A stretch of 64,000 nt of DNA from Gemmatimonadota bacterium (GTDB taxonomy: Bacteria > Gemmatimonadota > Gemmatimonadetes > Gemmatimonadales > GWC2-71-9). Position 1 is the first letter of the stretch; the number at the start of each line of letters is the position of its first letter. Location: the NCBI GenBank assembly GCA_046726475.1, contig JBKPAO010000123.1:18133-82132 (forward strand), given 5' to 3'. The translations under genes were made by a program, and so were the position numbers. Of the stretch, positions 2,019 through 59,754 are shown one piece after another. A model generated the notes under the pieces. The model worked only from the letters and a program-made list of their open reading frames with translations, was not told the origin of the DNA and ran no database searches.

Positions 2019-2108
2019 GTGAACAGTGAACAGTGAACGGTGAAAATGATGGACGGTAGAAGCCCTGTTCACTGTTCACTGTTCACTGTTTACTGATTTA
2101 CTGTTTAC
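2019..2108. repeat. Inverted pair of tandem heptamer arrays (GTGAACA family) forming a long hairpin
   Basis: Left arm 2019-2046 is GTGAACA GTGAACA GTGAACG GTGAAAA. The spacer is 19 nt. Right arm 2066-2108 is TGTTCAC x3, TGTTTAC, TGATTTAC, TGTTTAC. It sits between the dapD stop and the yjbQ-like start. Confidence 0.9.
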
Positions 2109-2122
2109 GCTTTGACACGAAG

Positions 2123-2545
2123 ATGACCACTCACACTCACTATCTCTGGTTCGAGACCAAGCGCCGCCAGGAGATCATCGACATCACCGACCAAGTCGCG
2201 GAGCAGGTCGAGGTCAGCGGTGTCCGCGAGGGTATCGTCCTGGTATCCGCCATGCACATCAGCGCCTCCGTCTTTGTCAACGACCACGAGTCTGGGCTGT
2301 GGCAGGACATCCTGAGATGGCTGGAAGAGACCATTGCTCCCTGGGACCCAGACCGATACCACCACAACGAGACCGGTGAGGATAACGCGGCAGCACATCT
2401 CCGAAGCCTCACGATCGGCCACGAGGTGATCGTTCCCATCACCGCCGGCAAGCTGGATTTCGGGCCCTGGCAACGGGTGTTTTACGGCGAGTGGGACGGC
2501 CAGCGGCGAAAGCGCGTCATAATCAAAGTGATGGGAGAGAGTTGA
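2123..2545 (+). CDS. YjbQ/UPF0047 family protein (secondary thiamine-phosphate synthase-like)
   Basis: 140 aa. The motifs ...IIDITDQV...GIVLVSAMHISASVFVNDHE.GL..D.....HN.TGEDNAAAHL...GHEVIVPITAGKLDFGPWQ.VFY.E.DG... are characteristic of UPF0047. Confidence 0.8.
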   Translation: MTTHTHYLWFETKRRQEIIDITDQVAEQVEVSGVREGIVLVSAMHISASVFVNDHESGLWQDILRWLEETIAPWDPDRYHHNETGEDNAAAHLRSLTIGHEVIVPITAGKLDFGPWQRVFYGEWDGQRRKRVIIKVMGES

Positions 2546-2605
2546 AAACGACGAAGGCCAGAGGAGCCACTGTAGCTCCCCTGGCCTCGCCGGTGTGCGT
2601 GACTC

Positions 2606-11218: not shown

Positions 11219-11326
11219 TGTGTAGCTCCAAGAATCAAACCCGCGGCAAAGCTAGCCCTTCCCCGGACAGAAACGCAAACGAGGCCACCAGCGGTGGCCT
11301 CGCGCGCACGATATCACACTCAATCG

Positions 11327-18585: not shown

Positions 18586-19329
18586 TTACTGCGGTCCAAA
18601 TTCTTGGGCTGGGACGGGGACCTTCCGTTTGGCAGCGGGAATTACACCGACCTCGCGGGCCTTCGCGCGAAAAGTGGAACCGTGATCGACGTCCATGCCG
18701 GATTCCGCCTGCCACTGGTGCACCATCTCGTGAAGCAAGGTGTGCTCCACCTCCGACCAATCATGTCTACTGATGTGCCTCCGGCTGATGCCGATCTCTG
18801 TCGGTTTCCCGGTCTTCGCATCCACCGCCAGCTCACCCAGTCGGCTCTTCATCCGGCTCGAGAGACGGATAGGGATCTCGCCCAGACCCCCACTGAAATG
18901 GAGCTGGTTGAGGGCGCAGTGCAGGGCTTTCAGCCGCCGCAATAGTGCCAAGTCTCCCGGCCGCGTTCGTTCCCGGCGGATGGTCCGCCCCGGCGTCGCC
19001 ACATAGGAGGCGACGGGAAACTGCAGGAACTGCCGTTCAGCCGAACGCCGCCTGGGGCGTGGGACTCGGGGATTCAGGAATTGGATGATCGCGCGTAAGA
19101 CCTCATCAGGGGCAAAGGCGTACCCGCGATGAAGCCGAAGGGTGCGGCGGCTCAAACTGAGCATCACGGTACTATTGGAATGCGTCAGAATCCGGTCGAC
19201 CTGGGTCAGTCCGAGTCCCCGAAGTCGGGCCGGGAGCCAATCCTCGAAGAGAAAACACTGCTCCGCCCCCACCGATTCACGATGTCGCGCCTTCCCCGCT
19301 TCTCTGCTTCGCCGCTTCCCCGCCTTCAA
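18586..19329 (-). CDS. SprT-like zinc-metalloprotease domain protein
   Basis: An HEMVHQW zinc motif sits in an SprT-like context (...RLGE.......I.IS...........TLLHEMVH.W). The track start at 19329 is TTG and lies inside an octamer array. GTG 19272 is an alternative start that would leave the array intergenic. Confidence 0.7.
   Translation of the reverse strand: MKAGKRRSREAGKARHRESVGAEQCFLFEDWLPARLRGLGLTQVDRILTHSNSTVMLSLSRRTLRLHRGYAFAPDEVLRAIIQFLNPRVPRPRRRSAERQFLQFPVASYVATPGRTIRRERTRPGDLALLRRLKALHCALNQLHFSGGLGEIPIRLSSRMKSRLGELAVDAKTGKPTEIGISRRHISRHDWSEVEHTLLHEMVHQWQAESGMDVDHGSTFRAKAREVGVIPAAKRKVPVPAQEFGPQ
19291..19327. repeat. Tandem octamer array CTTCNCCG x4.5 (GGGGAAGC family, single arm)
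   Basis: CTTCCCCG CTTCTCTG CTTCGCCG CTTCCCCG CCTTC, located at the junction of the metallophosphoesterase stop and the SprT-like start. Confidence 0.85.
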
Positions 19330-43172: not shown

Positions 43173-43173
43173 T

Positions 43174-43383
43174 GTCAGATGTCGGTCGTCTGACGTCAGT
43201 CATCAGTCACCAGTCGCCAGTGTCGGTTTGGCTCCCGAGTGGTGGTCCTAGTTTCCAACAGCTCGCTGGCCTGCCGGATGGCGAACACCGAGACGCTCGA
43301 ACCATCCGGACTGCCGGATCAACCCAGCTGACGGATATAACGACTGCAGACTGACGATTGATGACTGACCTCTGACGACTGAC
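43174..43383. repeat. Inverted CAGTCAC / GACTGAC heptamer arrays flanking a ~115-nt spacer
   Basis: Left arm 43174-43226 is ...GTCTGAC GTCAGTCAT CAGTCAC CAGTCGC CAGTGTC. Right arm 43342-43383 is GACTGCA GACTGAC GATTGAT GACTGAC CTCTGAC GACTGAC. The spacer contains the hairpin CCGGATGG-N20-CCATCCGG (43274-43309). Confidence 0.85.
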
Positions 43384-43444
43384 CCCAACTAGCATCCGCC
43401 TCCCGACCCGGGTAAATCTCAGCCATGAATCCGAGAATGCACCC

Positions 43445-44458
43445 ATGACCGCCACCCAAGCGGCGCCGCATGACGACGTCCAGCAGCTGGAACGCCTGGT
43501 CGGTGCCGTTACTCGGCTCAAGAGCCAGGTTGCGCAGCGCATCGTCGGGCAGGAAGACGTGGTAGACGGGATTCTCACCGCGGTACTTGCCGGCGGCCAC
43601 GCGCTGCTCATCGGCGTTCCCGGCCTGGCCAAAACGCTCATGGTCCAGACGGTGGCAGAGGCGCTCGACCTCAGCTTCAACCGGGTGCAGTTCACCCCCG
43701 ATCTCATGCCGAGTGACATCACAGGGACCGAGATCATCGAGGAGGATCTGACCACCGGCCGGCGCGCCTTTCGCTTCGTACAGGGTCCGATTTTCGCCAA
43801 CGTCGTGCTCGCCGACGAGATCAACCGCACGCCGCCAAAGACTCAAGCCGCGCTGCTCCAGGCGATGCAGGAGCATCAGGTTACCGCCGCCGGCACGACC
43901 TACCGGTTGCCCGACCCTTTTTTCGTGCTCGCGACCCAGAACCCCATCGAGCAAGAGGGTACCTACCCGCTGCCCGAGGCGCAGCTCGACCGCTTCATGC
44001 TGGAGCTCCGGGTGAGCTACCCCAGCAAGCAGGAAGAGGAAGCGATCGTCGAGCAGACTACCGGTACCAGCCGCGCAGGGTTGCATCCCGTCCTCGACGC
44101 GGCATCGGTGCTTTCAATGCAGTCGTTGGTGCGACGGATCCCGGTCTCGCGAGGACTGATCCGGGCAGCGGTCACCCTGGCCCGGATGACTCGGCCGGGC
44201 GACGGCGATGCACCTGGGTTCATCAAGGAATATGTGGAATGGGGCGCCGGACCGCGCGCGTCACAGTACCTGGTACTCGGCGCCAAAGCGCGCGCCGCGA
44301 TCGCCGGGCGTCCCATGGCCGACCTTGAGGACGTGCGCGGCGTCGCTGCCTCGGTTCTACGCCACCGGCTGGTCACTAACTTCGCCGCCGAAGCAGCCGA
44401 CCGTACCAGTGACGATCTGGTGCGCGAGCTGATGGGGGGGAAGGGATGGTTGGGGTAA
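43445..44458 (+). CDS. MoxR-family AAA+ ATPase
   Basis: IVGQEDVVDGILTAVLAGGHALLIGVPGLAKT.....A.AL.L.F.R.QFTPDLMPSDITG, LADEINR.PPKTQ.ALL.AM.E..V. Confidence 0.9.
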   Translation: MTATQAAPHDDVQQLERLVGAVTRLKSQVAQRIVGQEDVVDGILTAVLAGGHALLIGVPGLAKTLMVQTVAEALDLSFNRVQFTPDLMPSDITGTEIIEEDLTTGRRAFRFVQGPIFANVVLADEINRTPPKTQAALLQAMQEHQVTAAGTTYRLPDPFFVLATQNPIEQEGTYPLPEAQLDRFMLELRVSYPSKQEEEAIVEQTTGTSRAGLHPVLDAASVLSMQSLVRRIPVSRGLIRAAVTLARMTRPGDGDAPGFIKEYVEWGAGPRASQYLVLGAKARAAIAGRPMADLEDVRGVAASVLRHRLVTNFAAEAADRTSDDLVRELMGGKGWLG

Positions 44459-44638
44459 GCGGGGAAGCGGGACCGAGGATCAATAGATCATCAGTAAAGA
44501 AAGAAGCCCGGCCAACTTGACCGGGCTTCTCGATTGTTCTGAGCACATTCCTCGGCTCGCGGTAAGGCGGTTCGTTCACTGATCTGACATCTAGACCGCC
44601 CAACCAACTATTTCCCCGCTTTCCGCTTCCCCGCTTAC
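44455..44638. repeat. Perfect 16-nt inverted repeat (GTAAGCGGGGAAGCGG; GGGGAAGC family) bracketing a bidirectional terminator
   Basis: 44455-44470 is the exact reverse complement of 44623-44638. Each arm contains the TAA stop of one of the two convergent genes. Confidence 0.9.
44503..44529. terminator. Bidirectional rho-independent terminator between the moxR-like and lipoprotein genes
   Basis: GAAGCCCGG-N9-CCGGGCTTC. The minus-strand RNA is followed by UUUCUUUACU, and the plus-strand RNA by UCGAUUGUUCU. Confidence 0.65.
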
Positions 44639-45738
44639 GCCGGCTGCGAGAAAAACGCTCCGACCGGTGCCAGCATCTGATCGAACGCAATGAACGCGGC
44701 GGCCTGCAGCTGGAAGACGCCGTCTAGCGCGACCAGCTCGTCATCCGAAAGCGGCGTTCCGTCGGCGCGGGTAATCGTCGTGGTGGTGCCGTTGGTTGTG
44801 ATCGTCGCGAAGGCAGTGCCGTTGATCCGGACGTTGAGGGTGCCGCTAGTCTCCGCGAACTGTCCGGTCATCGTCACCGTGCCGTTGGGACCGCGCATCG
44901 AGAGATTGATGTTGATCGGGCTGTCCGGCACGCTCACATCGGCCACGCTCACCGTCAGGCTGATCGAGACGTCGCGATCCGGCATAGTGAGCGAGTAGGT
45001 CAGCGTCAGACCGGCGGTGACCGTGATGGTGGACTGGAGATTGATGTTGGCCTGGGTGACACCGTCGGTGACGTACCCAATCACGGTGACCCGGCCGCTG
45101 GTCGCGCCGCTGCTGGCGCTCACGGTGTAGTCGATGTAGGTCGTCGACCCCGATATCACCTGCACTCGTGCCGCCTGGGTGGTTCCGACGCTCACATCGG
45201 TGATGTCCACGTGGCCGGTTTCGACCAGCGGTTCCACCGGCAGATATGTCACCGGATCTACCGCGTACAGCAGGAAGCGCACGCCATTGGATGGGGCGCC
45301 GGTGATGTCCGAAGCGACATAGCTCCCGGTGCCGATGTCATAGACGAAGGTCTTCCCCGCGACTGCTGTCGGGACCCCCATCATCGAAGCGCTCAGCCCG
45401 TCGCGGTCCTTCTTGATGAGTGTCGCCGCCAGCCGCCGCGCTGCGCGAGCCGCCGCCACCCTGATGCCTTGGGCTCCGCCGCCCCGCACATCGATCGCGA
45501 CCGCCGAGGTCGAGATGATGGGTGCACCGCCTAGCGCCGCATCGAACATCAGGCTGAACGTTGAAAAGCTGGCGAAGGCCGGGGAGGCGAATGTCGAATT
45601 CATCGCCTCGAGGTCGGTCGAGGTACCATTGGGATTGAATGGCGCGTCAGGACTCGACTCACTGCCGCAGCCTGTCAGGGTAAGAGAGACCAGCGCCACC
45701 GCCACGACAGATCGCTTGGCGAATTGCAGCACACGCAT
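44635..45738 (-). CDS. Hypothetical lipoprotein
   Basis: GGAGG lies 9 nt upstream of ATG 45738. The signal peptide plus lipobox is MRVLQFAKRSVVAVALVSLTLTGC. The body is Thr/Val-rich and beta-type. No family recognised. Confidence 0.6.
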   Translation of the reverse strand: MRVLQFAKRSVVAVALVSLTLTGCGSESSPDAPFNPNGTSTDLEAMNSTFASPAFASFSTFSLMFDAALGGAPIISTSAVAIDVRGGGAQGIRVAAARAARRLAATLIKKDRDGLSASMMGVPTAVAGKTFVYDIGTGSYVASDITGAPSNGVRFLLYAVDPVTYLPVEPLVETGHVDITDVSVGTTQAARVQVISGSTTYIDYTVSASSGATSGRVTVIGYVTDGVTQANINLQSTITVTAGLTLTYSLTMPDRDVSISLTVSVADVSVPDSPININLSMRGPNGTVTMTGQFAETSGTLNVRINGTAFATITTNGTTTTITRADGTPLSDDELVALDGVFQLQAAAFIAFDQMLAPVGAFFSQPA

Positions 45739-45922
45739 GGGTTCCGCCTCCATCCTCAGGAGCCAGTTGAGGCAGTCCGGTCGTCGGACTACCGGTCGAA
45801 AGCCGTCAAACGGGGGATTTGAGCGCTTTTCGGGGGTGCCGCAGGCCACCGCGGAAGCGGCGGCCCAGGACTGATGCGGGATAAGGCAACGGCTATGCCA
45901 AAAGCTGCAGGTACGTGAGTTG

Positions 45923-46109
45923 GAAGCTGGGAGCTAGGAGCTAGGACCTGGGAGCCGGGAGGTGGGCGCTGCTGGGAGCTGAGCTGAGCTGAACGTTACC
46001 TGCCTGGCGTCGAGCAGCTTCCGAATGTCGAAAGGAAGACGGGATCGCTCGATGGCCTCGCTCCCGACTCCTAGCTCCTAGCTCCCAGCTCCTGACTCCT
46101 ATCCTCCAC
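45923..46109. repeat. Inverted GGAGCTA / CTCCTAG heptamer arrays
   Basis: Left arm 45923-45993 is GAAGCTG GGAGCTA GGAGCTA GGACCTG GGAGCCG GGAGGTG ... GGAGCTGAGCTGAGCTG. Right arm 46061-46109 is CTCCCGA CTCCTAG CTCCTAG CTCCCAG CTCCTGA CTCCTAT CCTCCAC. Confidence 0.9.
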
Positions 46110-46220
46110 GGGTAACCCCGCAGCCTGCCAGGCGGCCCAGCCGCCCACCAGGGCACGCGCCTTGGGCCAGCCTGCCGCTCGAAGCTCTCGCGCCACCCGG
46201 GCGCTTGTGGCTTCGTCCTT
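46071..46220 (-). other. In-frame continuation of the rhodanese domain beyond the TGA at 46221-46223 (49 codons plus TAG)
   Basis: Same frame as the antiporter ORF. It reads KDEATSARVARELRAAGWPKARALVGGWAAWQAAGLPVEDRSQELGARS*, which is the expected second half of a rhodanese fold (..A..L...G......L.GG..AW...G.PVE). Confidence 0.7.
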
Positions 46221-47678
46221 TCACGCACAGTAGAGCACTACCGTCGCGTGGTGGTCGAGACCCAGCTCCCTGGCTCGACGGACGGCGTCCTCCGGCGGAA
46301 GCCGAATCGCGCCGGCAGCCTTGAGATTGTCGGCGGCGTGGCTCCGCTCGGTGCGCACGTCGGCCAGAATCACTGGCTCGCCCGAGTCGCGGAGTTGCTG
46401 TAGCTCGCCGAGCGTGATGCGCTCGGGGACCCGGACATCGGGATCCGGCTGAGTCGTGACCGGAGCGGCGCTAATCTCCGTTGCTTCAGTGAGCGAGCCC
46501 TCGGTCTTACTGAGGAACAGGGCGATCCCGGTGCCGTGGAGCGCCACCGAAAGCAGTACCACCAGACTGGTGATCGCGAAGAGTCGGTCGCTGCCCTGCA
46601 CGCCGGCGAACACCGGCAGCAGGATCAGCAGCAGCGAGCTGAGCCCTCGCGGACCCCCGATCCAGGCGATGATCCGGCGAGTGCGCACGTCGAAGCCCTC
46701 GCGCGCCAGCACCGGCAGCAGCACCACGGACCGCATGACCAGCGCGACCAGGGCAAAGAGCAGCGTGCGCCCGTCGGCGACGTTGACCCCCCTCCAGATG
46801 AGCCCGGCGCCGAACGCGACGAAGGTGAACAGCAGAAACATCTCGGCGGTGGCCTGACCATAGTCGAGGAAGCAGTCGCACAGCTCCACGTCCAGCTTGG
46901 CAATGACCACGCCCGCCGCGAATGCAGCCAGGAACCCGCTTCCGCCCACCGACTCGGCCGCGGCATAGGCAGTGAACGCGACGCCGAGCGCGTAGAGCGA
47001 TTCGTAGTCGCGCCGGACCCCGATCCGCTTTCGCACCTGCTCCAACAGAGTTATCGCGACGAAACCGGCGAGGGCGCCGAGTCCTGGACCGAGCAGGAAG
47101 AGTCCCACCGCATGGCGGCTGAATTCTGAAGCGCCGTCGCTGGTAGTCAGCCCTAGGATGCTCAACACGATGATCGGCAACAGCACCACGTCGTTGATCC
47201 CGCCCTCCAGGCGGAGCCCCTCGCGCACCGCGGGCGGGAGACTGGACCGCCGGATCAGATTCCGGAGCATCACCGGATCGGTCGAGGCCAGCGCCGCCCC
47301 GAGCATGGTGGCGTGGAGGGGTTGGAGACCGAGCAGCAGCCACGCAGCCACCCCGATGAGCACGGCCGGGATCAGTGTCCCCGGACCCAGGATCAAGAGC
47401 AGCAATCGCCGTGGCCGCCTGATCTCTCTCAGATCCATGGCGATGGCATCGGTGAACAGAACCAGCACCAGACCGAGCGTCGCGATCCACTCGAGCGTGG
47501 GCGACCCGAGTGTGAGGTTTACGAGGTTGAGCCCGGCGGGGCCGAGCACTGCGCCGAGCAGCAGGAAGATGGCGACTTGGGGAACTCCGGTGCGCTCGAT
47601 CAGCCCGGAGAGGAGTGACGAGACCAGGATGACGATCCCGATCAGCGCGAGTGCGGAGGCGAGCGATTCGGGAGACAT
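46221..47678 (-). CDS. CPA1-family cation/proton antiporter with a C-terminal rhodanese domain (ORF as delimited by the in-frame TGA)
   Basis: The N-terminal ~400 aa is a Na+/H+-exchanger-type membrane domain (...TGVPQVAIFLLLGAVLGP..., ATDPV...). The C-terminus ILADVRTE.....L.AAGAIRLP...........HHATVVLYCA stops exactly in the rhodanese active-site loop. Confidence 0.85.
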   Translation of the reverse strand: MSPESLASALALIGIVILVSSLLSGLIERTGVPQVAIFLLLGAVLGPAGLNLVNLTLGSPTLEWIATLGLVLVLFTDAIAMDLREIRRPRRLLLLILGPGTLIPAVLIGVAAWLLLGLQPLHATMLGAALASTDPVMLRNLIRRSSLPPAVREGLRLEGGINDVVLLPIIVLSILGLTTSDGASEFSRHAVGLFLLGPGLGALAGFVAITLLEQVRKRIGVRRDYESLYALGVAFTAYAAAESVGGSGFLAAFAAGVVIAKLDVELCDCFLDYGQATAEMFLLFTFVAFGAGLIWRGVNVADGRTLLFALVALVMRSVVLLPVLAREGFDVRTRRIIAWIGGPRGLSSLLLILLPVFAGVQGSDRLFAITSLVVLLSVALHGTGIALFLSKTEGSLTEATEISAAPVTTQPDPDVRVPERITLGELQQLRDSGEPVILADVRTERSHAADNLKAAGAIRLPPEDAVRRARELGLDHHATVVLYCA

Positions 47679-47692
47679 GCGGGAAGTATGTC

Positions 47693-47719
47693 GGAGCTAA
47701 GAGCTAGGAGCTAGGAGCC
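47693..47719. repeat. Tandem GGAGCTA heptamer array (single arm)
   Basis: GGAGCTAA GAGCTAG GAGCTAG GAGCC, followed by the palindrome ATGACT-CCTC-AGTCAT. It lies in the divergent region between the two antiporter genes. Confidence 0.85.
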
Positions 47720-47775
47720 AACAGCGATGACTCCTCAGTCATTGCGGGGCCGTGAGCGGTCCGCTAACCTCGCGC

Positions 47776-49254
47776 ATGACCCACGAACCGGAAGCTACCG
47801 CTCTTCTCCTCGCCACTTGCGGCCTGCTCCTCGGCGTCAGCGTCGTCTTCAGCCGAGCCTCGCAGCGAACCGGCATTCCAATCGCGCTCTTGTTCATCGT
47901 GGTTGGGATGCTCGCCGGCTCCGAAGGTGTGGGCCGCATTGCCTTCGACGACTACCGATTCGCCTTTCGGCTGGGGACCGTTGCCCTAGCGCTGATTCTG
48001 TTCGATGGCGGACTCAACACTCCCCTGCAGACCGTACGAAAGGCGGCGGCTCCCGCCGGTGTGCTCGCCACCGTCGGCGTGGCCGGTACCGCCGTGCTGG
48101 TCGCCGTCGTCGCGCACGCCCTGGGGCTGAGCTGGCCCGAGGCGCTCCTTCTCGGAGCGGTGGTCTCATCCACCGATGCCGCCGCCGTCTTCGCTGTGCT
48201 TCGGGGCAGCGGTCTCCAGCTCAAGCGCCGGGTCGGGGTCACGCTCGAGGTCGAATCCGGCATCAACGATCCGGTCGCCGTCATCCTCACCACGACACTG
48301 ACTCAGAACTTGCTCTCCCCCGGGGCGGCATCAGGAATCCGGATCGTGATCGAAGTCCTGGTCCAGCTTCTGGTCGGGACCGTGGTGGGCATTGCGATCG
48401 GCCACGGTGGACGGCAGCTCCTCGCCCGGTTGAGTCTCCGGACGGGCGGCCTCTATCCCGTCGTGAGCCTGGCGCTGGCGCTATTTGCCTTCGGAGCCGG
48501 CACGCTGCTGCACGGAAGCGGCTTCCTCGCAGTGTATCTCGCGGGCCTGGTGCTCGGAAACGGCCCGCTACCGTATCACACCGGGCTTCTCCGGGTGCAC
48601 GACGCGCTCGCCTGGCTCAGCCAGGTCGGGATGTTTCTCATACTCGGTCTCCTGGTGTATCCCTCCCGCCTACTCGACGTGGCCTGGATTGGACTCGGCA
48701 TTGCGGCGCTGCTCGCCTTCTTCATCCGACCGCTGGTCGTGGCGTTTTGTCTCCTGCCGTTTCGCTATCCTTGGAACGAGGTGTTCTACATAGGGTGGGT
48801 AGGACTCCGCGGTGCGGTGCCGATCGTGCTGGCGACGTTCCCCGTGCTGGCGGGCGCTCCCGGCGCGGATCGACTCTTCGACTTGGTCTTCTTCATCGTG
48901 GTCGCGACCGCCCTGGTTCCCGGCGCCACGGTTGCGTGGGTGACCCGAAGGCTCGGTCTTCAGAGCAAGCAGCCGCCAGCCCCCCAGCCGGTGCTGGCGA
49001 TCGAGTCGCGCCAGCCGCTCCAGGGCGAGCTCATGTCCTTCTATATAGATGAAGCGCTGGTAGTGGCAGGGATGGCGGTGGAGGAGCTGTCGCTGCCGGA
49101 GGGCGCGGCGGTGACGCTGATTGTGCGGCACAATCGTCTACTGCCACCGATAGCAGGAACCGCGCTCGAACCGGGCGATCACGTCCACCTGATCGCACAG
49201 CCGGAAGACCGCGGGTTCATTCAACTGATGTTCGGAAGGCCCGAGGAGGAATAG
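47776..49254 (+). CDS. nhaP2: K+/H+ antiporter NhaP2-like (CPA1) with a C-terminal TrkA-C domain
   Basis: ...SRASQRTGIPIALLFIVVGMLAGSEGVG.I.FDDY......G..AL..ILF.GGL.T, and the C-terminal part EL.LPEGA.V.LI.R......P...T.LE.GD.V.L. The start is ATG 47776, or GTG 47752 as in the track. Confidence 0.85.
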   Translation: MTHEPEATALLLATCGLLLGVSVVFSRASQRTGIPIALLFIVVGMLAGSEGVGRIAFDDYRFAFRLGTVALALILFDGGLNTPLQTVRKAAAPAGVLATVGVAGTAVLVAVVAHALGLSWPEALLLGAVVSSTDAAAVFAVLRGSGLQLKRRVGVTLEVESGINDPVAVILTTTLTQNLLSPGAASGIRIVIEVLVQLLVGTVVGIAIGHGGRQLLARLSLRTGGLYPVVSLALALFAFGAGTLLHGSGFLAVYLAGLVLGNGPLPYHTGLLRVHDALAWLSQVGMFLILGLLVYPSRLLDVAWIGLGIAALLAFFIRPLVVAFCLLPFRYPWNEVFYIGWVGLRGAVPIVLATFPVLAGAPGADRLFDLVFFIVVATALVPGATVAWVTRRLGLQSKQPPAPQPVLAIESRQPLQGELMSFYIDEALVVAGMAVEELSLPEGAAVTLIVRHNRLLPPIAGTALEPGDHVHLIAQPEDRGFIQLMFGRPEEE

Positions 49255-49276
49255 TTCGTCTTCCACTGGAGGACCG

Positions 49277-49690
49277 ATGAAAATTCACCGTTCTCTGCTG
49301 GCAATCATGGTCTTCAATGTTCTGCTCCTCTTGATCTCGGTGAATTGGACTGGCGCCGTCGCGGCGCGAGGGGTCGCACCGGTGCTCCGGGGGCGTGGGC
49401 TCGAGATCGTGGATGAGAGAGGCCGAGTTCGCGCCAGCATAACCATCTTGCCGGCTGACTCAACCGCGAAGATGCCGGATGGCACAACCGGGTATCCTGA
49501 GACGGTCCTACTCCGGCTGATCACGTCGGAAGGGCGACCCAACGTGAAGATCGGGACTGGTGCGAAAGGCGCCGGAATGCTTATCGCCGGCGAAGACGAC
49601 CCGACCTACGTTCAGATTCTCGCGGAAGGTCCCAGAACGACGCTGAAATTGAGCGACAAAGACGGACGGGTACGCGTTCTCAGGCCGTAG
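49277..49690 (+). CDS. Hypothetical membrane-anchored/secreted protein
   Basis: A GGAGGA RBS precedes ATG 49277. The N-terminal TM segment is LLAIMVFNVLLLLISV. No family recognised. Confidence 0.5.
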   Translation: MKIHRSLLAIMVFNVLLLLISVNWTGAVAARGVAPVLRGRGLEIVDERGRVRASITILPADSTAKMPDGTTGYPETVLLRLITSEGRPNVKIGTGAKGAGMLIAGEDDPTYVQILAEGPRTTLKLSDKDGRVRVLRP

Positions 49691-49727
49691 TTAGTCGGAG
49701 CCGGCCTTCATTGAGGCACTCCGCCCT

Positions 49728-50225
49728 CTACGGTGCCGCGGTCACGAAGGGATCCAGGAAAGCAGAGCGGACTGCGGGCTCCTCCTGCAGCCGATCGATC
49801 ATGCCCTTCAGCCGGCTCAATTCCCCGCTTTCGAGGACTTGAACCGCGTAGAACCCGTCGGCCGATCCTGCCGGCATGCGCCACCCTCCAACTACCCGTC
49901 CGCAGACCGCCGCCACCGCCCGCCCGCGATCCGACGCGCTCGAGCCCGGCCGAAACCGCACCGCGATGACGTGCTTTCGATAGGTGTTGGACCGGCTGCT
50001 GTCATCCGAGAACCACCGGGGCACCGTGTCCGGCGGGAGCGATGGCACCTCCGCCCGGGCACAGGAATCAGCGGGACTCACTCCACCCTCGCTCTCCGAC
50101 GTCACCGAGGACGGAGCAAAGGCCTGGAGGGCAAGCACGAGAGCCAGGGGAGCAACGGTTACCATGCGTCGAATCAGGACGACGCCAGAATTGTGGCCGG
50201 GTGCAGCCAGCAGTCGGTTAATCAT
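49728..50225 (-). CDS. Hypothetical secreted protein
   Basis: Signal-like segment MVTVAPLALVLALQAFA. The start is uncertain (ATG 50225, 50165, or the track's 50321). Confidence 0.4.
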   Translation of the reverse strand: MINRLLAAPGHNSGVVLIRRMVTVAPLALVLALQAFAPSSVTSESEGGVSPADSCARAEVPSLPPDTVPRWFSDDSSRSNTYRKHVIAVRFRPGSSASDRGRAVAAVCGRVVGGWRMPAGSADGFYAVQVLESGELSRLKGMIDRLQEEPAVRSAFLDPFVTAAP

Positions 50226-50481
50226 CGAGCGTTTCGGCTGTAGGAGAGGAGGCGAGAATCTAACGTGAGACCCTTCAACTGGCCACGGGATTGCGCTTTC
50301 CCCGGATGCAATGCTCTGCACATCTATTTCTGCGGCCCTTGGGAATGCAGGATGCGTTCGGCAATCTCTCTTGCGCGTGCCATGGTGAGTCTCGTCCGTT
50401 GGTCAACCGCAAGCGGATGCTCGGTGGGTTCTAGCCACTCGAAGCCAAAGAGGTGAGTCAGGCTGCTATGGTCGAGGGGCT

Positions 50482-52611
50482 TCAGTGGGTCGCCCGAGTC
50501 AGGCCCAGCTGCGCGGCAACGAAGGCCCACACGTCGGTCCACTCCGCGATGGCGCCCGATGCCGAGGCGTAGCCGTGGCTCGCGTCACTGGCCACTCGCA
50601 GCAGAACCGGCCGGTCGCAGCCCTGCGCCGCCTGCAACGTGGCTGCGAACTTGTATGCGTGGCTCGGCACCACCCGATCGTCGTGGTCGCCGGTGAGGAG
50701 CAGCGTCGCCGGATAACAGACTCCCGCCCGTACGTGCTGCAGTGGTGAGTACGCCCGTAGCCAGCGGAAGGCGACGGGATCGTCGGGGGAGCCGTATTCC
50801 GGTATCCAGCCTGCCCCCACCGTGAATTTGTGAAACCGCAGCATGTCGTAGTGACCCGCGTTCGCCACCGCGACGGCGAACAGATCGGGACGCTGGGTCA
50901 GCACGGCACCGATGAGCAGGCCGCCGTTAGAATGGCCGTAGATCGCGAGCCGCCGGGGAGAGGTGTAGCCCTCGTGAACCAGGTACTCGGCCGCAGCAAT
51001 GAAGTCGTCGAAGCTCTGCTGCTTCCGCGCGAGGCTACCGGCCAGGTGCCACGCCTCCCCGTACTCACCGCCACCACGGATGTTGGCCACCGCATAGATC
51101 CCGCCCGCCTCGAGCAACCACGGTACTTGCGACTCATAGCTTGGCTGCTGCACGCTACCGAACCCACCGTAGCCGGTGAGCATCACGGGATGGGTTCCGT
51201 CGAGCTGGAGTCCCTTCCGCGCGGTGATGAACATCGGCACCCGAGTGCCGTCATTCGACCGGTAGAACACCTGGCGGGTCTCGTACCCCGCGGGATCGAA
51301 CGAAACATGAGGAGGCTGGAACGGCACGGTCACGCCGCTCCTGAGATCGTCGTAGAAGACAGTGGTCGGCGTGAGGAAGGAAGTAAATGCGTAGAGCAGC
51401 TCCGGTGCCGAGGCTCGGCCGTTGAGCGGCCACTCCACCGCACCGAGGCTGGGCAGCCGCACCTCGCCCAGGGGCCGGCCGTCCAGCGTGAACCGGCGCA
51501 GCCGGCTGGTGACGTCCACGAGATAATGGAGGGCGAGGCCATGTCCCGCGACGGTGGCGGTCTCGATCACGTCCTTGCCTTCCGGGATCACCGGGCGGGC
51601 GCGGGCTCGCGAGCCGTCCGTTAGGGTGAGGGCAACGACGCGCCCACGCGGCGCGTCCAGGTCGGTGAGCACGTAGAGGGTGTCGCCCACCGTACCCAGC
51701 GGCGTATGCCCGGCCTCGCGATTGCCGAGCAGTGGCACCAGCGGCGCTGCGAGATTGGGCGAGCGGGGTTGCCCGAGATCCATGGCGTACATCCACGAGG
51801 CGGCACCGCGCTCCGCCACGGCCAACGCCCAGCGTCCGTCGTCGCTCAGCATGCAGTAGAGCCAGCGATAGTTGTCGGTCCACCGGCGCAGCAGGGTATC
51901 CGCCGACTGCGGCCGGCCGAGCCGGTGGTACCAGAGTTGCTTTTCCACTCGCGCTGCGTCCGCTGTCGCGCCCGGTTGGGCCGCAGGCGGCCGCATATAG
52001 AAGAAGCCGCCCCCATCGAAGGTCCAGCATGCGTTGCTCCAGGTGCCGCGGACCACGTCCGCCCGGTCGCGGCCCGTGCTCAGGTCGCGCACGTGCGTCT
52101 CGCCCGCGTCGGCGCCACCGGGCGAAGTCGAATAGGAGAGCCAACGTCCATCGGGGGAGACCGCGAAGTCGCTCACCGCGGTCGAGCCGTGCGCCGAAAT
52201 TTTCTGGGGGTCGAGCACAACCACCGGCGGTGCACCGATCCCACGTCGGGAGTAGAGCACCGACTGCGGTCGGCCGCCCGGGTTCTCCAGGTAAAAGAGG
52301 CGGCCGGCTTCCCGCCACGGAACTTCGGTGCGGCTGGAACTCCACAGCGACTCTAGACGCCGCCCGATGGCGTCGCGTCCGGGCAGGCGATCGAGCCGCT
52401 CGCGCGTGAGCCGACTCTGGGACTCGATCCATGCTTTGGTCGCTGGATCGTCGAGCCGCTCGAGCCAGCGGTAGGGATCGGCGACCTTGATACCGTGGTA
52501 GTCGGCAACGACGGTGTCACGCCGGGTGGCGGGATAGCCCGGCGACTGAGCGACGGCCGCGGATCGTATTGGAATTGCGAGGAGCACCAGCGAGGTGATG
52601 GCGAAACGCAC
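50482..52611 (-). CDS. Prolyl oligopeptidase (S9A family), secreted
   Basis: The N-terminus YHG..V.DPYRWLE...DP....W...Q, a beta-propeller middle, and a catalytic domain with GHSNGGLL (Ser nucleophile), ...GDHDDRV and ...HG. A signal peptide is present. Confidence 0.9.
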   Translation of the reverse strand: MRFAITSLVLLAIPIRSAAVAQSPGYPATRRDTVVADYHGIKVADPYRWLERLDDPATKAWIESQSRLTRERLDRLPGRDAIGRRLESLWSSSRTEVPWREAGRLFYLENPGGRPQSVLYSRRGIGAPPVVVLDPQKISAHGSTAVSDFAVSPDGRWLSYSTSPGGADAGETHVRDLSTGRDRADVVRGTWSNACWTFDGGGFFYMRPPAAQPGATADAARVEKQLWYHRLGRPQSADTLLRRWTDNYRWLYCMLSDDGRWALAVAERGAASWMYAMDLGQPRSPNLAAPLVPLLGNREAGHTPLGTVGDTLYVLTDLDAPRGRVVALTLTDGSRARARPVIPEGKDVIETATVAGHGLALHYLVDVTSRLRRFTLDGRPLGEVRLPSLGAVEWPLNGRASAPELLYAFTSFLTPTTVFYDDLRSGVTVPFQPPHVSFDPAGYETRQVFYRSNDGTRVPMFITARKGLQLDGTHPVMLTGYGGFGSVQQPSYESQVPWLLEAGGIYAVANIRGGGEYGEAWHLAGSLARKQQSFDDFIAAAEYLVHEGYTSPRRLAIYGHSNGGLLIGAVLTQRPDLFAVAVANAGHYDMLRFHKFTVGAGWIPEYGSPDDPVAFRWLRAYSPLQHVRAGVCYPATLLLTGDHDDRVVPSHAYKFAATLQAAQGCDRPVLLRVASDASHGYASASGAIAEWTDVWAFVAAQLGLTRATH

Positions 52612-55526: not shown

Positions 55527-56969
55527 TCAACTCTCGCTGAGCACCAACAGCTTGAGTTCGGTCATCTCCTCGATGGCGTAGCGAACGCCCTCGCGCCCCT
55601 GCCCCGATTCCTTGACTCCACCGTAAGGCGCGTGGTCCACCCGGAAGCCGGGTACGTCGTTCACCACCAGCCCGCCCACCTCGAGTCGCTCGAAGGTGCG
55701 GAGAATAATTCGCATGTCGTTGGTAAAGAGTCCCGCCTGAATGCCGTAGCGCGAATCATTCACCGCGGCTACTGCCGCGTCGAAATCGGCATAGGGACGG
55801 ACCGTGGTCACTGGCGCGAAGATCTCCTCGCAGTTGACGCGCATGCCGCCGGTGGTGTCGAGCAAAACCGTAGGCTGGAGGATCGCGCCGTCCCGCCGGC
55901 CACCGGTAGCGACCCGCGCCCCGGCTGTGACCGCCTCGCCGATCCACTCCTCCGCCCGCACGGCGTTCGCCTGGTCGATCATTGGGCCCACGTCGGTCGT
56001 CTCGGACATTGGGTCACCGGTGCGGAGGGCCCCCACCGCCGTCACGAACCGCTCGGTGAACCGCGGGTACATCGACTGGTGGGCCAGAATCCGTTGGGTC
56101 GAGATGCACGACTGGCCGGCATAGAGATACCCGCCGGCCACGCAGCGCCGCACGGCGTGTTCCAGATCGGCATCCGGTTCGATTATCACGGCCGCGTTGC
56201 CGCCCAGCTCGAGAGTCACGCGCTTGGTGGGTGCCCGACTCCGGATGGCCCACCCGGCGCGGGCTGAGCCGGTGAAGGTGATCATCCGGACGCGGGGGTC
56301 GTCGATCAGCGGAGCCGCGACCTCGTTGCTGCAAAGCAGGATGGAGAGCGCGCCCGCCGGATAGCCGCTTTCGCGGACGATCTCGCCGAGCAGCAAAGTT
56401 GCGAGCGGGTCCTGCGGCGGCACTTTGAGCACCATGGTGGCGCCGCAGGCGATAGCGGGCGCCAGCTTATGGGCGGCGAGCAGGACGGGAAAGTTGAACG
56501 GGATGATTGCCGAGATCGGCGAGAGTGGAAACCGGCGGGTGAGACCCCAGCGCCGCTCGCCATGGGGCTGAAGGTCCATGGGGATCATGTCTCCGCCCAT
56601 CCGCACCGCCTCCTCAGCACCCTGCCGGAACACGAAGACCGCGCGGTCGATCTCGGTTCGCGCCAGCGCGAGAGGCTTCCCTGCCTCGGCGGCGAGGAGA
56701 CGGGCCAACGACTCGCGATGCTGCGCCACGCCGACGCCGATCCGGTCGAGCACGGCGGCCCGGGCGTGCGAGGGGAGGGCTGCAGCTGCGGGCGCTGCAG
56801 TGACTGCGGCATCGAGCGCGGCCGCGACATCGACGAGACTGGCCAGCTCCGCCCGACCGATCAAGTCCCCCGAGTAGGGGCTTCGGATCTCCACCAACTC
56901 TCCACCAGTCCTGAGCTCACCGCCCAGCAGAAATGGATAGGTGCGGCTCTCAAGCGTGGCAGCGGTCAT
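55527..56969 (-). CDS. NAD(P)-dependent aldehyde dehydrogenase family protein
   Basis: VTLELGGNA, ...GQSCIS... (catalytic Cys), EEIFAPV, and the C-terminal GG.K.SG.GREG. ATG 56969; the track start at 57089 is over-extended. Confidence 0.88.
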   Translation of the reverse strand: MTAATLESRTYPFLLGGELRTGGELVEIRSPYSGDLIGRAELASLVDVAAALDAAVTAAPAAAALPSHARAAVLDRIGVGVAQHRESLARLLAAEAGKPLALARTEIDRAVFVFRQGAEEAVRMGGDMIPMDLQPHGERRWGLTRRFPLSPISAIIPFNFPVLLAAHKLAPAIACGATMVLKVPPQDPLATLLLGEIVRESGYPAGALSILLCSNEVAAPLIDDPRVRMITFTGSARAGWAIRSRAPTKRVTLELGGNAAVIIEPDADLEHAVRRCVAGGYLYAGQSCISTQRILAHQSMYPRFTERFVTAVGALRTGDPMSETTDVGPMIDQANAVRAEEWIGEAVTAGARVATGGRRDGAILQPTVLLDTTGGMRVNCEEIFAPVTTVRPYADFDAAVAAVNDSRYGIQAGLFTNDMRIILRTFERLEVGGLVVNDVPGFRVDHAPYGGVKESGQGREGVRYAIEEMTELKLLVLSES

Positions 56970-57141
56970 GAGGGATCCGGGGCTTACGGTGTTACGACCG
57001 GTTACGACGGTCTCAAGTGTAACTATCGGCGGGGCAGCGGGGCAGCGGGCGGGCGGCGGGCCACTCGCGAAGGTCGCTTGACGACCCATGGCATTGCCCT
57101 AGTATTGGCCGAACAGGCCCGGCGCCTGGAAGGAGGTCACC

Positions 57142-57654: not shown

Positions 57655-57702
57655 TGGCCTGCTCCATGGGCTCTTCCTTATATCAGCCGCCCGCCTGTCC
57701 GC

Positions 57703-58665
57703 TTACCGGAGATATGGCGCCACGTTGCTCGCGACTGTCTCAAACTCACGCTGAGTAAGCGGAAGTCTGCGGAACGCCGCCCACGCCTCCCTTGGCCGGA
57801 GATTGTCGCCGGCGGCGGCATCCGAGCCATACAGGATTCGGTCGACGCCGGCCTGACGGATCCGTTTCGTCACCAGCGCTGCTTGCCCGGGGGTGATATT
57901 GCGGTCCACGATGCCAGCGACGTCGAACCAGAGCCGGCGGGTGCGCGGATCCTTCTTCTCTACTGCCTCGGCCAGCACCGCCATCGCACTGTCGGCCGGC
58001 GGGTCGTCATAGCCGGGCCCGCTACCCGCCAGATGCGCGACCTGCACCGCCACGTCGGGAGCCGCCGGTAGCAGTTCCTCCAGAAACGCGCGGGCCTGTA
58101 CCGGTCCGTAGGGGCGCTTCTTCGAGATCGACGCTCGGAGGTGCACCACGATCGCCATACGGTGCTGGTTCGCCGCCCGAAAGACTCGGCGGAGCTGCTC
58201 GACGTGCGCCGGGTTCTCCAGCCGCACGTCCGAGTTGCCGAAGTGGAGCTTGATGCCGCCCTTGAGCCTGGGATCCTTCGCGCAGCGCTCAAGCTCCTTT
58301 AGCGCGTATTCCTTCAGCGGATTGAAGCCGCAGAACGCTCGCAACCGGTCGGGATACTCTGCCACCTGGGCCGCAATCCAGTCGTTCTCAGCCCGAACCT
58401 TGGCGTACTCGTCTTCGACCGTGCGCGATGGGCTCCCGTAGATGTAAGCGACCGATAGCACCAGTGCCCGACGAATGCCGGCCGAATCGAGCAGCTGCAC
58501 GACATCATGCGCCATGATGGGCGGCTGAGTGTGGGTAGTATCCAGTAGCGCCACCATGGCTGGGCTGAACAGATGCTGATGGTGATCGGCGACTGGAGCG
58601 ACCTGTCCGGCTGCTGGAAAGGTGCAGACTATGAGCATCATCAACGGGAGGGTATGCCGGTTCAC
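57703..58665 (-). CDS. Amidohydrolase-family (TIM-barrel metal hydrolase) protein, secreted
   Basis: ADHHQHLFSP (HxH metal motif near the N-terminus), ...VVHL..., ...HLAG.G, ...YGSD. GTG 58665 gives a signal peptide. Confidence 0.65.
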   Translation of the reverse strand: MNRHTLPLMMLIVCTFPAAGQVAPVADHHQHLFSPAMVALLDTTHTQPPIMAHDVVQLLDSAGIRRALVLSVAYIYGSPSRTVEDEYAKVRAENDWIAAQVAEYPDRLRAFCGFNPLKEYALKELERCAKDPRLKGGIKLHFGNSDVRLENPAHVEQLRRVFRAANQHRMAIVVHLRASISKKRPYGPVQARAFLEELLPAAPDVAVQVAHLAGSGPGYDDPPADSAMAVLAEAVEKKDPRTRRLWFDVAGIVDRNITPGQAALVTKRIRQAGVDRILYGSDAAAGDNLRPREAWAAFRRLPLTQREFETVASNVAPYLR

Positions 58666-58778
58666 GCAACCTCGGGCAGTGAGGGAGTCCTCGATATCCG
58701 ATCTGGACCGGTATGAGATAGGACCGACGGTAATATGGTTCAAGGAGTCTCGCCTACTCGGAAAGCAAATCGGCAACT

Positions 58779-59750
58779 GTGCAGAACGGTAAACCCAGCG
58801 ATCACTATGACGGCCGCCGCTTCTTCAATCCTAGCGGCGCGAACGGCCAGCCGTTCTGGAAGGTACCCGCCCTGCTGCTCACGCCACGAACCCGGTGGCC
58901 GGCGCTGGTTCCGGTAGACCCGCGGCGGCCCCCCACTCCCCGACCGGACGAGGTGATCGTCACCTTCATCGGCCATGCCACGTTTCTAATTCAGGCTGGC
59001 GCAACCAGCGTATTGATCGATCCGGTGTACTCCCAGAGGGCGAGCCCGGTCTCGTTCGCAGGACCACGCCGCGCTCGGGAGCCAGGCGTACGATTCGACG
59101 ATCTGCCCACCATCTCCCTCGTGCTCTTGAGTCACAACCACTACGATCACTGCGACCTCGGTACGTTGCGGCAACTCGAGCGCCGCTTTCATCCGAGGGT
59201 CGTGACACCGCTGGGCAACGGCCGTCTGCTCCGGACGTCGGGTGTCGAACGGGTTGAGGAGATCGACTGGTGGGAGACCGCGAGCGCCGCACCGCTGCCG
59301 ATCATGCTGACCCCCGCCCAACACTTCTCGGCGCGGCACATGTTCGATCGAAACCGAGCGTTGTGGGGTGGATTTCTGATCGAGATCGGTGGGCGCCGAA
59401 TACTCTTCGCCGGAGATACCGGTTATGGCCCCCATTTCCAGGAGATCGCCGCTCGGCTAGGTCCGGTCGATCTCGCCTTTCTTCCGATCGGGGCCTACGA
59501 GCCGCGCTGGTTCATGAGAGACATTCATATGAACCCGGCGGAAGCAGTGCAGGCACACCTCGACCTCGCGGCGCGGCAGAGCATCGCCATGCACTTCGGC
59601 ACCTTTCAGTTGACACCGGAGGGAATCGACGACCCGTCTCGGGAACTGGCGACTGCCTTGCGCGATCGCGCTGTGCCGGCGGAGCAATTTCGGATCTTGG
59701 ACGCCGGCGAGTCGTTCAGCCTCCCGAATCCTGACCGACTGACCGACTGA
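58779..59750 (+). CDS. MBL-fold metallo-hydrolase (NAPE-PLD-like)
   Basis: ...GRRFFNP..., TFIGHATFLIQ..G...L.DPV.S, LLSHNHYDHCD. GTG start. The last 6 codons are encoded by the CTGACCGA array. Confidence 0.8.
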   Translation: MQNGKPSDHYDGRRFFNPSGANGQPFWKVPALLLTPRTRWPALVPVDPRRPPTPRPDEVIVTFIGHATFLIQAGATSVLIDPVYSQRASPVSFAGPRRAREPGVRFDDLPTISLVLLSHNHYDHCDLGTLRQLERRFHPRVVTPLGNGRLLRTSGVERVEEIDWWETASAAPLPIMLTPAQHFSARHMFDRNRALWGGFLIEIGGRRILFAGDTGYGPHFQEIAARLGPVDLAFLPIGAYEPRWFMRDIHMNPAEAVQAHLDLAARQSIAMHFGTFQLTPEGIDDPSRELATALRDRAVPAEQFRILDAGESFSLPNPDRLTD

Positions 59751-59754
59751 CCGA
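59731..59754. repeat. Tandem octamer array CTGACCGA x3
   Basis: CTGACCGA CTGACCGA CTGACCGA. The TGA stop of the MBL gene is the TGA of the third unit. Confidence 0.85.

Follow-up and report, generated by a model that had tools for sequence, protein, structure and literature searches.

Inverted arrays of 7-8-nt units at gene boundaries of a Gemmatimonadales genome: simple-sequence repeats of a known class as candidate stems of transcript-end hairpins

Heptamer-type dispersed repeats have been known since 1990 in cyanobacteria and were described between 2007 and 2015 in GC-rich proteobacteria. Arrays of the heptamer GGGAATC were reported by Rehm et al. in 2015 (PMC4692102) for Xanthomonas campestris and X. 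axonopodis, and arrays of GGGGA(C/T)T for Nostoc PCC 7120. These arrays contain 2-26 units, occur genome-wide and are over-represented in non-coding DNA, and 70 and 75 convergent inverted pairs were counted in two Xanthomonas genomes. Their G-rich strand is either the coding strand, 0-50 bp from a stop codon with overlaps included, or the non-coding strand just upstream of the start of an open reading frame (ORF). They are depleted between divergent ORFs, and their length varies between species while the single or paired type is kept. The subject of this report is a set of tandem arrays of 7-8-nt units, mostly arranged as inverted pairs, in a 64,000-nt stretch of DNA (the window; G+C 62-66%) from an uncultured Gemmatimonadales lineage, a soil bacterium.

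Repeats with units of 5-11 nt were surveyed by Mrazek, Guo and Shah in 2007, as summarised in PMC4679880 and PMC4692102. According to these summaries, heptamers are the most abundant long simple-sequence repeat, the repeats occur mainly in large GC-rich genomes of non-pathogens (Burkholderia, Actinobacteria and Xanthomonas are among the richest), and polymerase slippage was proposed as their source. As presented there, the survey defines a statistical class without a described architecture. TAACTGA arrays of 2-6 copies were described by MacGregor in 2015 (PMC4679880) for marine Beggiatoaceae, where they are intergenic, lie by coding starts and have no evident mechanism of dispersal. In Calothrix PCC 7601, as cited in PMC4692102 (ref. 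39), several tandem heptamer families, the STRR repeats, are dispersed in one genome.

The loci of the window are long simple-sequence repeats with 7-8-nt units, a class known from Xanthomonas, cyanobacteria and other large genomes. Like the GGGAATC arrays of Xanthomonas, they consist of tandem units of about 7 nt at many loci of a GC-rich host, with a bias toward non-coding DNA, depletion from divergent gaps, convergent pairs, a purine-rich coding strand after the stop codon and variation in copy number. Xanthomonas has one dominant unit that is capable of G-quadruplex formation and shows a four-copy preference, whereas the window, from the phylum Gemmatimonadota, holds at least 5 unrelated families per 64 kb in a mixture of 7-mers and 8-mers, most of them without G-runs, at ~3 arrays per 10 kb. 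Apart from the single quadruplex-capable unit and its four-copy preference, every feature of the class of Rehm et al. is present here, and the arrays are of the same kind but of another sequence family. An initial annotation of the window had stated that no such system was known from a GC-rich genome of this kind, which is contradicted by the Xanthomonas arrays (PMC4692102). Its comparison with the cyanobacterial STRR repeats is a fair one, because several tandem heptamer families occur in one genome in both cases. Assignment to the STRR family itself was rejected, the host being a member of Gemmatimonadales, and the two systems differ in phylum, base composition and unit sequences. The heptamers CCCCAGT, TTGGTCA and CAACAGT are STRR units, and none of them matches a unit found here. 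Inverted pairing, which is rare in Nostoc (Rehm et al., PMC4692102), is the main form in the window. The TAACTGA arrays (PMC4679880) are alike in that one unit occurs at many unrelated loci of one genome, but they comprise 169 direct sets versus one indirect set, lie just upstream of starts and belong to AT-richer genomes with a single unit. A full-text literature search returned no description of such arrays for Gemmatimonadota. New are the phylum, the array density, the several unit families per genome, most of which are unable to form G-quadruplexes, and the comparative evidence for hairpins built of arrays taking the place of ordinary ones at transcript ends. For Xanthomonas, no such equivalence of position with plain hairpins was reported.

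Arrays were detected using Tandem Repeats Finder (TRF) with a cut-off of period 6-10 and at least 2.8 copies, non-overlapping. The window contains 26 such arrays, compared with a mean of 1.06 and a maximum of 5 in 50 dinucleotide-preserving shuffles of the window. The loci listed in the initial annotation were all recovered by TRF and read directly in the sequence (Table 1), and the TRF rows at 1244, 36636, 37541 and 40907 are probably ordinary low complexity of coding sequence. Pairing was assessed by aligning the reverse complement of each array to its two flanks of 300 nt and, as a control, to 200 randomly chosen positions. An inverted partner far above the controls was found at nine loci, with spacers of 23-141 nt. 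All nine pairs fold in prediction into long imperfect hairpins on both strands, as had been anticipated, with energies of -44 to -109 kcal/mol and z scores of -3.8 to -9.9. The modelled architecture at most loci is a purine-rich arm, a spacer and a complementary pyrimidine-rich arm, which would form a stem of ~20 to >80 bp on either strand. Rfam and tRNA scans of the window gave no match, and no Rfam family fits the arrays.

Relatives were collected by scanning species-representative genomes with the MoxR-type ATPase encoded at 43445-44458. The scan provided 80 loci with 73-93% protein identity, nearly all from Gemmatimonadales or Gemmatimonadota and many on contigs of 0.2-3.7 Mb (single contigs are designated below by L numbers). 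Periods of 7 (142 arrays) and 8 (92 arrays) dominate in the relatives. The density of arrays at gene boundaries is 3.0 per 10 kb in the window versus 1.1-1.8 in the relatives, and 62 arrays were counted in 436 kb of their megabase-size contigs. Genes were called using a crude caller based on GC3 (G+C at third codon positions), by which ~90% of all sequence is coding. The counts on context and polarity given below cover 68 pairs from the window plus the 80 relatives, and the counts on T-runs and spacers cover 64 pairs.

Gene boundaries hold 61 of the 68 inverted pairs. Convergent gaps contain a pair in 20 of 218 cases (9.2%), co-directional gaps in 35 of 632 (5.5%) and divergent gaps in 6 of 242 (2.5%), and an array is present in 13 of the 34 intergenic gaps of at least 35 nt in the window. 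The location at gene boundaries that had been claimed for the arrays is confirmed, and so is their inverted pairing at nine loci of the window, which lies far above the 200 random placements. Stop codons had also been described as part of the units. They do lie within units at five sites (Table 1), and those at 2012-14, 23613-15 and 36113-15 abut an array or lie within ~11 nt of one, but they are not enriched: a sense-strand stop is present in 17 of 54 5'-arm units, where 13.8 are expected from letter-shuffled units. Stop codons were accordingly rejected as the reason for the unit sequences.

The arms of the pairs have a marked polarity: 56 pairs have a 5' arm rich in purines, 6 have one rich in pyrimidines and 6 have a neutral one. 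Because an inverted repeat reads alike on both strands, this polarity applies to transcripts from either side. The 5' arms contain 45% G and 24% A, and the 3' arms 46% C and 25% T (71% pyrimidine). The pair at 43174-43383 is the only one in the window without a purine-rich 5' arm. Among 32 unpaired arrays of 7-mers or 8-mers in co-directional gaps, those with a purine-rich sense strand outnumber the rest by 24 to 8. Plain hairpins were taken from the same intergenic regions, outside arrays, as a set of 70 perfect hairpins with stems of 9 bp or more. Of these, 38 have a purine-rich and 8 a pyrimidine-rich 5' arm, the 5' flank contains 0.38 A versus 0.11 T and the 3' flank 0.31 T versus 0.14 A, and 38 of them are located in convergent gaps and 5 in divergent gaps. 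This polarity, with these flanks, is the signature of bidirectional intrinsic terminators. Since plain hairpins show the same polarity and gap distribution, the array pairs share the polarity and context of terminator-type hairpins. Hairpins after gene 3' ends or inside operons are familiar as intrinsic terminators, which are often bidirectional, as intercistronic stabiliser stem-loops and as the REP/BIME elements of Escherichia coli. The pairs resemble terminators and stabilisers in their purine-rich 5' arm and pyrimidine-rich 3' arm, and at 44453-44638 they enclose a canonical terminator. A pyrimidine-rich 3' arm in RNA forms a weak RNA:DNA hybrid that can be stripped by a purine-rich 5' arm, and the polarity fits the mechanics of termination.

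The gap between atpE and atpF, the genes for the c and b subunits, was located in relatives by tblastn and then folded. Almost every relative has a stable hairpin there. This is a plain GC stem in L012, L016, L017, L020, L030 and L034, and it is built of inverted 7-8-nt arrays in the window and in L008, L011, L015, L019, L021, L022, L023, L024, L033, L065 and L078. The array-built hairpins use at least 10 largely unrelated units, among them GGGTCYA, GTCTCAG, GGGAGCT, GGTCTTT, GGCTGAA, GACGGGAA, GGTGAGC and GACGGCGA, and that of L023 is 187 nt long. The stem of L014, with GCCGGCT x2.5, has the look of an array in the making. In many relatives (L008-L025) hairpins or arrays stand on both sides of atpE, in the atpB-atpE and atpE-atpF gaps; in the window the atpB-atpE gap (41389-41551) is without a repeat and the atpE-atpF gap spans 40962-41052.

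The convergent 3' end of the MoxR gene was also compared between relatives. A canonical terminator (A-tract, GC stem and T-tract) is present there in many relatives, and arrays of differing units flank or abut it in the window and in L008, L009, L011, L014, L018, L033 and L039. The hairpin of the window (44501-44531) is conserved in many relatives and is the best terminator-like site of its region. Both arms have changed together at this site, being GGGGAAGC/GCTTCCCC in the window versus GGGGCAGC/GCTGCCCC in L011. One site can carry either an array hairpin or a plain one. The two loci provide a natural experiment, in which array-built and plain GC hairpins replace each other after atpE and arrays also flank canonical terminators. 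Together with the terminator polarity and with the inability of most units to form quadruplexes, this argues that the general role is that of a hairpin at transcript ends and not of a quadruplex.

Strains were compared at the same loci. The arrays of the window recur in three NCBI metagenome-assembled genomes (MAGs), GCA_046744465.1, GCA_046724575.1 and GCA_046729435.1, which are near-identical (99.9% identity over 40445-50678), and in several JGI, ENA and Logan contigs. Copy-number polymorphism, which the initial annotation had suggested looking for, appears as differences of whole units between close relatives at four loci. At 2065-2093 exactly one CTGTTCA unit is missing in the MAG contig L090, the other 129 aligned bases being identical. 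At 44455/44612 one extra unit is present in both arms of L005 and L006 (98% identical overall) and in the 3' arm only of L007. At 43340-43383 L007 lacks 9 nt. At 35992-36113 one arm has 2, 3 or 4-5 units and the other 3 or 4, depending on the strain. As close strains differ by whole units and the arrays are present in relatives, megabase contigs included, they are not assembly artefacts, which had been a concern. Divergence at 35992-36113 is uneven. The spacer (36018-36094) has 51-64% identity between strains (window versus L093, L094, L096, L097 and L099), the 3' arm is identical at 22 of 23 positions and the outer flank is 96-100% identical. The flanking cupin gene encodes an identical protein in all strains compared, and its third codon positions are 86-90% identical (10-14% differ). 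The pair at 21516-21652 is identical across six assemblies except for one single-nucleotide polymorphism in the spacer. Four independent short-read contigs (L103, L104, L105 and L107) end within this spacer (21553-21616), and inverted arrays appear to be systematic break points in the assemblies of this lineage. In practice, inverted arrays break short-read assemblies of these abundant soil bacteria, and over-long ORF calls swallow them.

Naming the loci slippage-type simple-sequence repeats of a known class is much safer than naming them functional RNA hairpins. That they are long stems, built by slippage, in RNA hairpins of the terminator type or between cistrons is given slightly better than an even chance. 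The pairs would then be stem-loops at transcript ends or between cistrons, doing the same job as ordinary terminator-type hairpins: they may stop or attenuate transcription, partly or fully, and may shield the 3' end of the upstream mRNA from exonucleases. The hairpin after atpE would favour the c subunit, which is needed in many copies. Replication slippage of whole units, acting on both arms, would extend existing stems or rebuild them on the spot, while the unit sequence could drift freely as long as the arms stay complementary, a freedom that may account for orthologous sites with different units. Because the register in which tandem arms pair is free, either arm could grow without a mutation in the other that exactly compensates for it. 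Action at the RNA level, as terminator or stabiliser, is suggested by position, polarity and comparative equivalence, and slippage is the putative generator.

Several results weigh against this reading. The paired architecture had been called constant; pairs do predominate, but six arrays at five loci (starting at 19291, 24662, 30127, 30200, 47693 and 59731) are unpaired; counted array by array, these are six of 15 loci. A hairpin role accounts neither for them nor for the two loci (30127-30227 and 21516-21652) that lie in coding sequence. At least six T in the 10 nt after the 3' arm are found in only 2 of 64 pairs, so the array pairs are not canonical intrinsic terminators, although the nested hairpin at 44501-44531 does qualify. 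Unlike those of terminators, the stems consist of tandem units and are much longer, and the U-tract is missing in 62 of 64 pairs. A perfect inner hairpin is present in only 5 of 64 spacers, terminator-pattern counts over the window equal the shuffle counts, and canonical terminators were rejected as a general explanation on these grounds. The sense-strand mismatches of co-directional pairs comprise 44 G:U versus 36 A:C, which provides no RNA-specific signature, and the pairing could be kept at the DNA level. In the atpE-atpF gap termination can be only partial, because the atp operon must be read through there. Unit sharing, defined as the same period with at most one mismatch in any rotation or on either strand, is found in 40% of same-period comparisons within a locus versus 4.8% between genomes, and over distances of 0.4 to 64 kb it remains in the range of 25-48%. 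Neither this re-use of units nor the uneven divergence at 35992-36113 is predicted by slippage with free drift, and the two patterns leave room for a homogenising or trans-acting process.

A neutral origin is possible but unlikely. In this explanation slippage and template switching in a hairpin expand pre-existing hairpins or slack intergenic DNA, and the products are functionless and persist as harmless. It is favoured by the fast change of copy number between strains, the different units at orthologous sites, the many unpaired arrays, the lack of a bias of G:U over A:C and the way in which arrays fill gaps as far as the stop codons, and reach into these or into coding loops that tolerate them. 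Slippage favouring 7-nt units was proposed by Mrazek et al. in 2007, as summarised in PMC4692102 and PMC4679880. The 56:6 polarity of the arms, however, needs a strand-symmetric directional force, and a hairpin is kept at atpE-atpF across relatives whatever its sequence. A unit repertoire that is specific to each genome, and the conservation of the 3' arm and outer flank at 35992-36113 around a diverged spacer, likewise speak for something other than neutral expansion.

The re-use of units within a genome could instead come from an undiscovered copying or homogenising process by which a few 7-8-nt units particular to a genome reach hairpin sites that are otherwise unrelated, with dispersed arrays evolving in concert. 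This is regarded as doubtful. In the window GGGGAAGC recurs at four loci, and GTGAACA/GTAAACA, GGAGCTA, GTCTAGA-like and GACTGAC-like units recur at two loci each. Between species, GGAGCTA is found in the window, L008 and L019 (where a GAGCTAG pair is located at the position corresponding to 45917-46109), and GCGGGGCA in L011 and L019. Loci with a common unit have unrelated spacers, their similarity being at the level of shuffles. Local spread of units was rejected, as sharing does not decay over 0.4-64 kb, and so was an origin from abundant genomic oligomers, as the units occur on their own about as often as a Markov model predicts. The homogenising process could take the form of gene conversion between loci, of a templated addition or of trans-acting binders that co-evolve. 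If true, it would account jointly for sharing within genomes, joint switching of arms and conserved arms around a fast-diverging spacer, and it would address how STRR-type, GGGAATC and TAACTGA repeats disperse.

Binding sites for trans-acting factors are rather improbable. The units would be bound in RNA by an S1-, Csp- or CsrA-like protein or in DNA by a nucleoid protein, with tandem copies giving multivalence. That the repertoire of each genome mirrors the specificity of that genome's own factors is an equally slim prospect. The sharing of units up to 64 kb within a genome compared with that between genomes fits such sites, and the same-unit loci with unrelated spacers indicate that the unit itself is what is shared. 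The purine-rich sense strand of the unpaired arrays in 24 of 32 co-directional cases points the same way, and binders of this kind were proposed for the TAACTGA repeats by MacGregor in 2015 (PMC4679880). Against them, at least 5 unrelated unit families in 64 kb would need several factors, no candidate factor was identified, the units are not enriched as solitary copies outside arrays, and they change between species with 88-93% identical MoxR proteins.

A G-quadruplex or R-loop, in which a G-rich arm on the non-template strand would pause RNA polymerase past the stop codon, is very unlikely here, although the idea was raised for Xanthomonas and Nostoc and GGGAATC repeats were shown to form G-quadruplexes in vitro (Rehm et al. 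2015, PMC4692102). G-runs do occur in the GGGGAAGC family, whose largest array (21516-21552) holds four of them, and G-rich or purine-rich arms lie on the sense strand right after stop codons. Most window units (GTGAACA, GTAAACA, GGAGCTA, GTCTAGA, GACTGAC, CTGACCGA and CCTCTCA) have no GGG run, however, the complementary arm of a pair would compete through duplex formation, and array lengths show no preference for four units.

Miniature mobile elements, that is MITE-like or REPIN-like insertions of the form array-spacer-array, are the least credible source: one unit does recur at dispersed loci of a genome and the inverted ends do resemble terminal inverted repeats, but same-unit spacers show no similarity beyond shuffles and no conserved core, the inner terminator is kept at orthologous sites flanked by differing arrays, copy number is unequal between arms, strains are set apart by single units, L014 suggests a stem duplicating in place, and no target-site duplication was seen (no transposase search was made, and filled and empty sites were not compared systematically). 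Identification as MITEs was rejected because the cores are unrelated and because, at orthologous sites, the arrays differ while the terminator between them is conserved. A REP element is one conserved imperfect palindrome of 20-40 nt that recurs across the genome and is associated with a RAYT transposase. REP and BIME elements, dismissed in the initial annotation, are indeed a poor match, and so are REPIN elements, as there is no conserved core, the spacers are unrelated and the stems are tandem units (no search for a RAYT transposase was made). CRISPR had rightly been set aside as well, since the units of 7-9 nt stand head to tail with no spacers between them, whereas CRISPR repeats have 23-47 nt and alternate with unique spacers of similar length.

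Three arrays had been reported to lie inside ORFs. Two loci do, and the array at 59731-59755 also covers the last codons and the stop codon of its gene. At 30127-30227 lie two direct heptamer arrays with unrelated units; they code for the central cytoplasmic loop of an MFS transporter, the translation reading as a transmembrane segment, the loop and a transmembrane segment. The ORF (29579-30829) matches Pfam MFS_1 over residues 28-268, and the gene is called with the same length of 416 aa in the three near-identical MAGs. A change of one unit would shift its reading frame. At 21516-21652 the pair lies within the first 50 codons of the ORF 20197-21660 (-), which has 487 aa, also in the JGI gene call, and whose ATG overlaps the stop of the upstream ORF as ATGA. 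The arms encode GKRGSGEAGKRGG and FPLPCFPASPLLA, ahead of QTSLTIYNDG, and together they resemble the charged and hydrophobic parts of a signal peptide. If this ORF is real, a hairpin of about -100 kcal/mol lies on its first 50 codons (predicted folds of -86 and -103 kcal/mol). Phase variation of the arrays inside ORFs was rejected, as no variation appears among the few near-identical assemblies.

Table 1. Repeat arrays, hairpins and array-free convergent gaps of the window (positions in the window, for array-free convergent gaps with a structure those given for the structure; starts are those of the two partner arrays)
Feature	Position	Starts	Units or structure	Context
Inverted pair	2019-2108	2019/2065	5' arm (GTGAACA) x3.7, 2019-2044; 20-nt spacer; 3' arm (CTGTTCA/CTGTTTA) x5.7, 2065-2108	Between stop 2012-14 and start 2123 of co-directional + genes; -47 kcal/mol, z -8.4
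Unpaired array	19291-19327		CTTCCCCG-like x4, = GGGGAAGC on the sense (-) strand	Junction of two co-directional - genes; no reverse-complement partner in 300 nt on either side
Inverted pair	21516-21652	21516/21617	(GAAGCGGG) x4.6, 21516-21552; (CCCCGCTT) x4.4, 21617-21651; degenerate array 21585-21607	In ORF 20197-21660 (-)
Inverted pair	23627-23730	23627/23688	(GTAAACA/GTGAACA) x4.9, 23627-23661; (TCACTGT/TCACTCT) x6, 23688-23730	Convergent genes; stop 23724-26 within a unit
Unpaired array	24662-24697		(CCTCTCA/CCTCTTA) x4.4	Directly 5' of the probable CstA ATG at 24700; divergent gap
Inverted pair, 8-9-nt unit	26738-26840	26738/26808	(GAGCGGAAG) x3.8, 26738-26771; (CCGCYCTTT) x3.7, 26808-26840	First unit overlaps the CstA stop TGA 26737-39
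Unpaired array	30127-30155		(GTCTAGA/GTCGAGG) x4	In MFS transporter ORF 29579-30829 (-), central loop
Unpaired array	30200-30227		(GACTTTT/GACTCTT) x4	In MFS transporter ORF 29579-30829 (-), central loop
Inverted pair	35992-36113	35993/36095	(GCGGGGAA) x3.2, 35993-36017; CTTCCCCG remnant, 36095-36113	Remnant abuts stop 36113-15 of a 1002-aa - gene
Inverted pair	40971-41049	40971/41026	(AGTCTAG) x3.6, 40971-40995; (GACYCTS) x3, 41026-41049	- strand; fills the atpE-atpF gap of the atp operon
Inverted pair	43174-43383	43197/43343	(CAGTCAY), ~43174-43226; (ACGACTG/GACTGAC) x6, 43340-43383; spacer ~120 nt	Divergent gap between atpI-like and MoxR genes
Inverted pair	44453-44638	44457/44612	(GGGGAAGC) x2.4, 44453-44471; (TTCCCCGC) x3.2, 44612-44636	Arms contain the stops of both convergent genes, 44456-58 and 44635-37
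Canonical terminator-type hairpin	44501-44531		14-bp stem, A-rich 5' flank, T-rich 3' flank	In the spacer of the 44453-44638 pair
Inverted pair	45917-46109	45917/46060	(GGAGCTR/GAGCTGG) x7.9, 45917-45993; (CTCCTAG/AGCTCCC) x4.9, 46056-46109	Co-directional - genes; -109 kcal/mol
Unpaired array	47693-47719		Pyrimidine-rich on the gene's sense strand	Divergent gap
Short array	57029-57061		(GCGGGGCA) x2.6	Near the start of - gene 55527-57089; absent from the list of the initial annotation
Unpaired perfect array	59731-59755		(CTGACCGA) x3.1	Spans the last codons and in-frame stop TGA 59748-50 of gene 58779-59750 (+)
Array-free convergent gap	2554-2588		Terminator-like hairpin
Array-free convergent gap	39808-39833		Perfect inverted repeat
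Array-free convergent gap	49691-49727		Stable predicted fold only (z -3.5)
Array-free convergent gap	57655-57702		No structure detected
Array-free convergent gap	62656-62685		Perfect inverted repeat
Array-free convergent gap	63345-63402		Stable predicted fold only (z -2.6)

The trait is patchy within Gemmatimonadales. The first 50 kb of plasmid 1 of the cultured member Gemmatirosa kalamazoonensis (NZ_CP007129, 1-50000; L108) contain no 7- or 8-nt arrays and only repeats with periods that are mostly multiples of three, of the coding type. No arrays were found in 13-21 kb each of the relatives L045, L061 and L062.

Six convergent gaps of the window have no array; five of them contain another structure and one does not (Table 1). 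Long-stem GC hairpins followed by T-rich tails are located at other gene ends (2554-2588, 11279-11303 and 27107-27129), so canonical terminator-like sites coexist with the array hairpins. Matches to the sigma-70 consensus over window positions 1-60000 number 1, 0 and 1, where 3.3, 3.4 and 2.3 are expected from shuffles, and promoters probably conform to a different consensus in this lineage.

Coding sequence at 37495-37573, inside the ORF 36113-39121, holds additional 8-mer runs rich in C or G, TCCGCCCT and CTGCCCCG, that the initial annotation did not list. The unit of the short array at 57029-57061 matches that of the relatives L011 and L019. Since the long ORF matches Pfam CstA only from residue 69 onward, the array at 24662 probably precedes the true start codon of CstA. 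A small ORF (23367-23615) has its stop codon TAA within a solitary GTAAACG (23613-23619), 7 nt ahead of the GTAAACA array, and this solitary copy may be a decayed unit or a seed unit.

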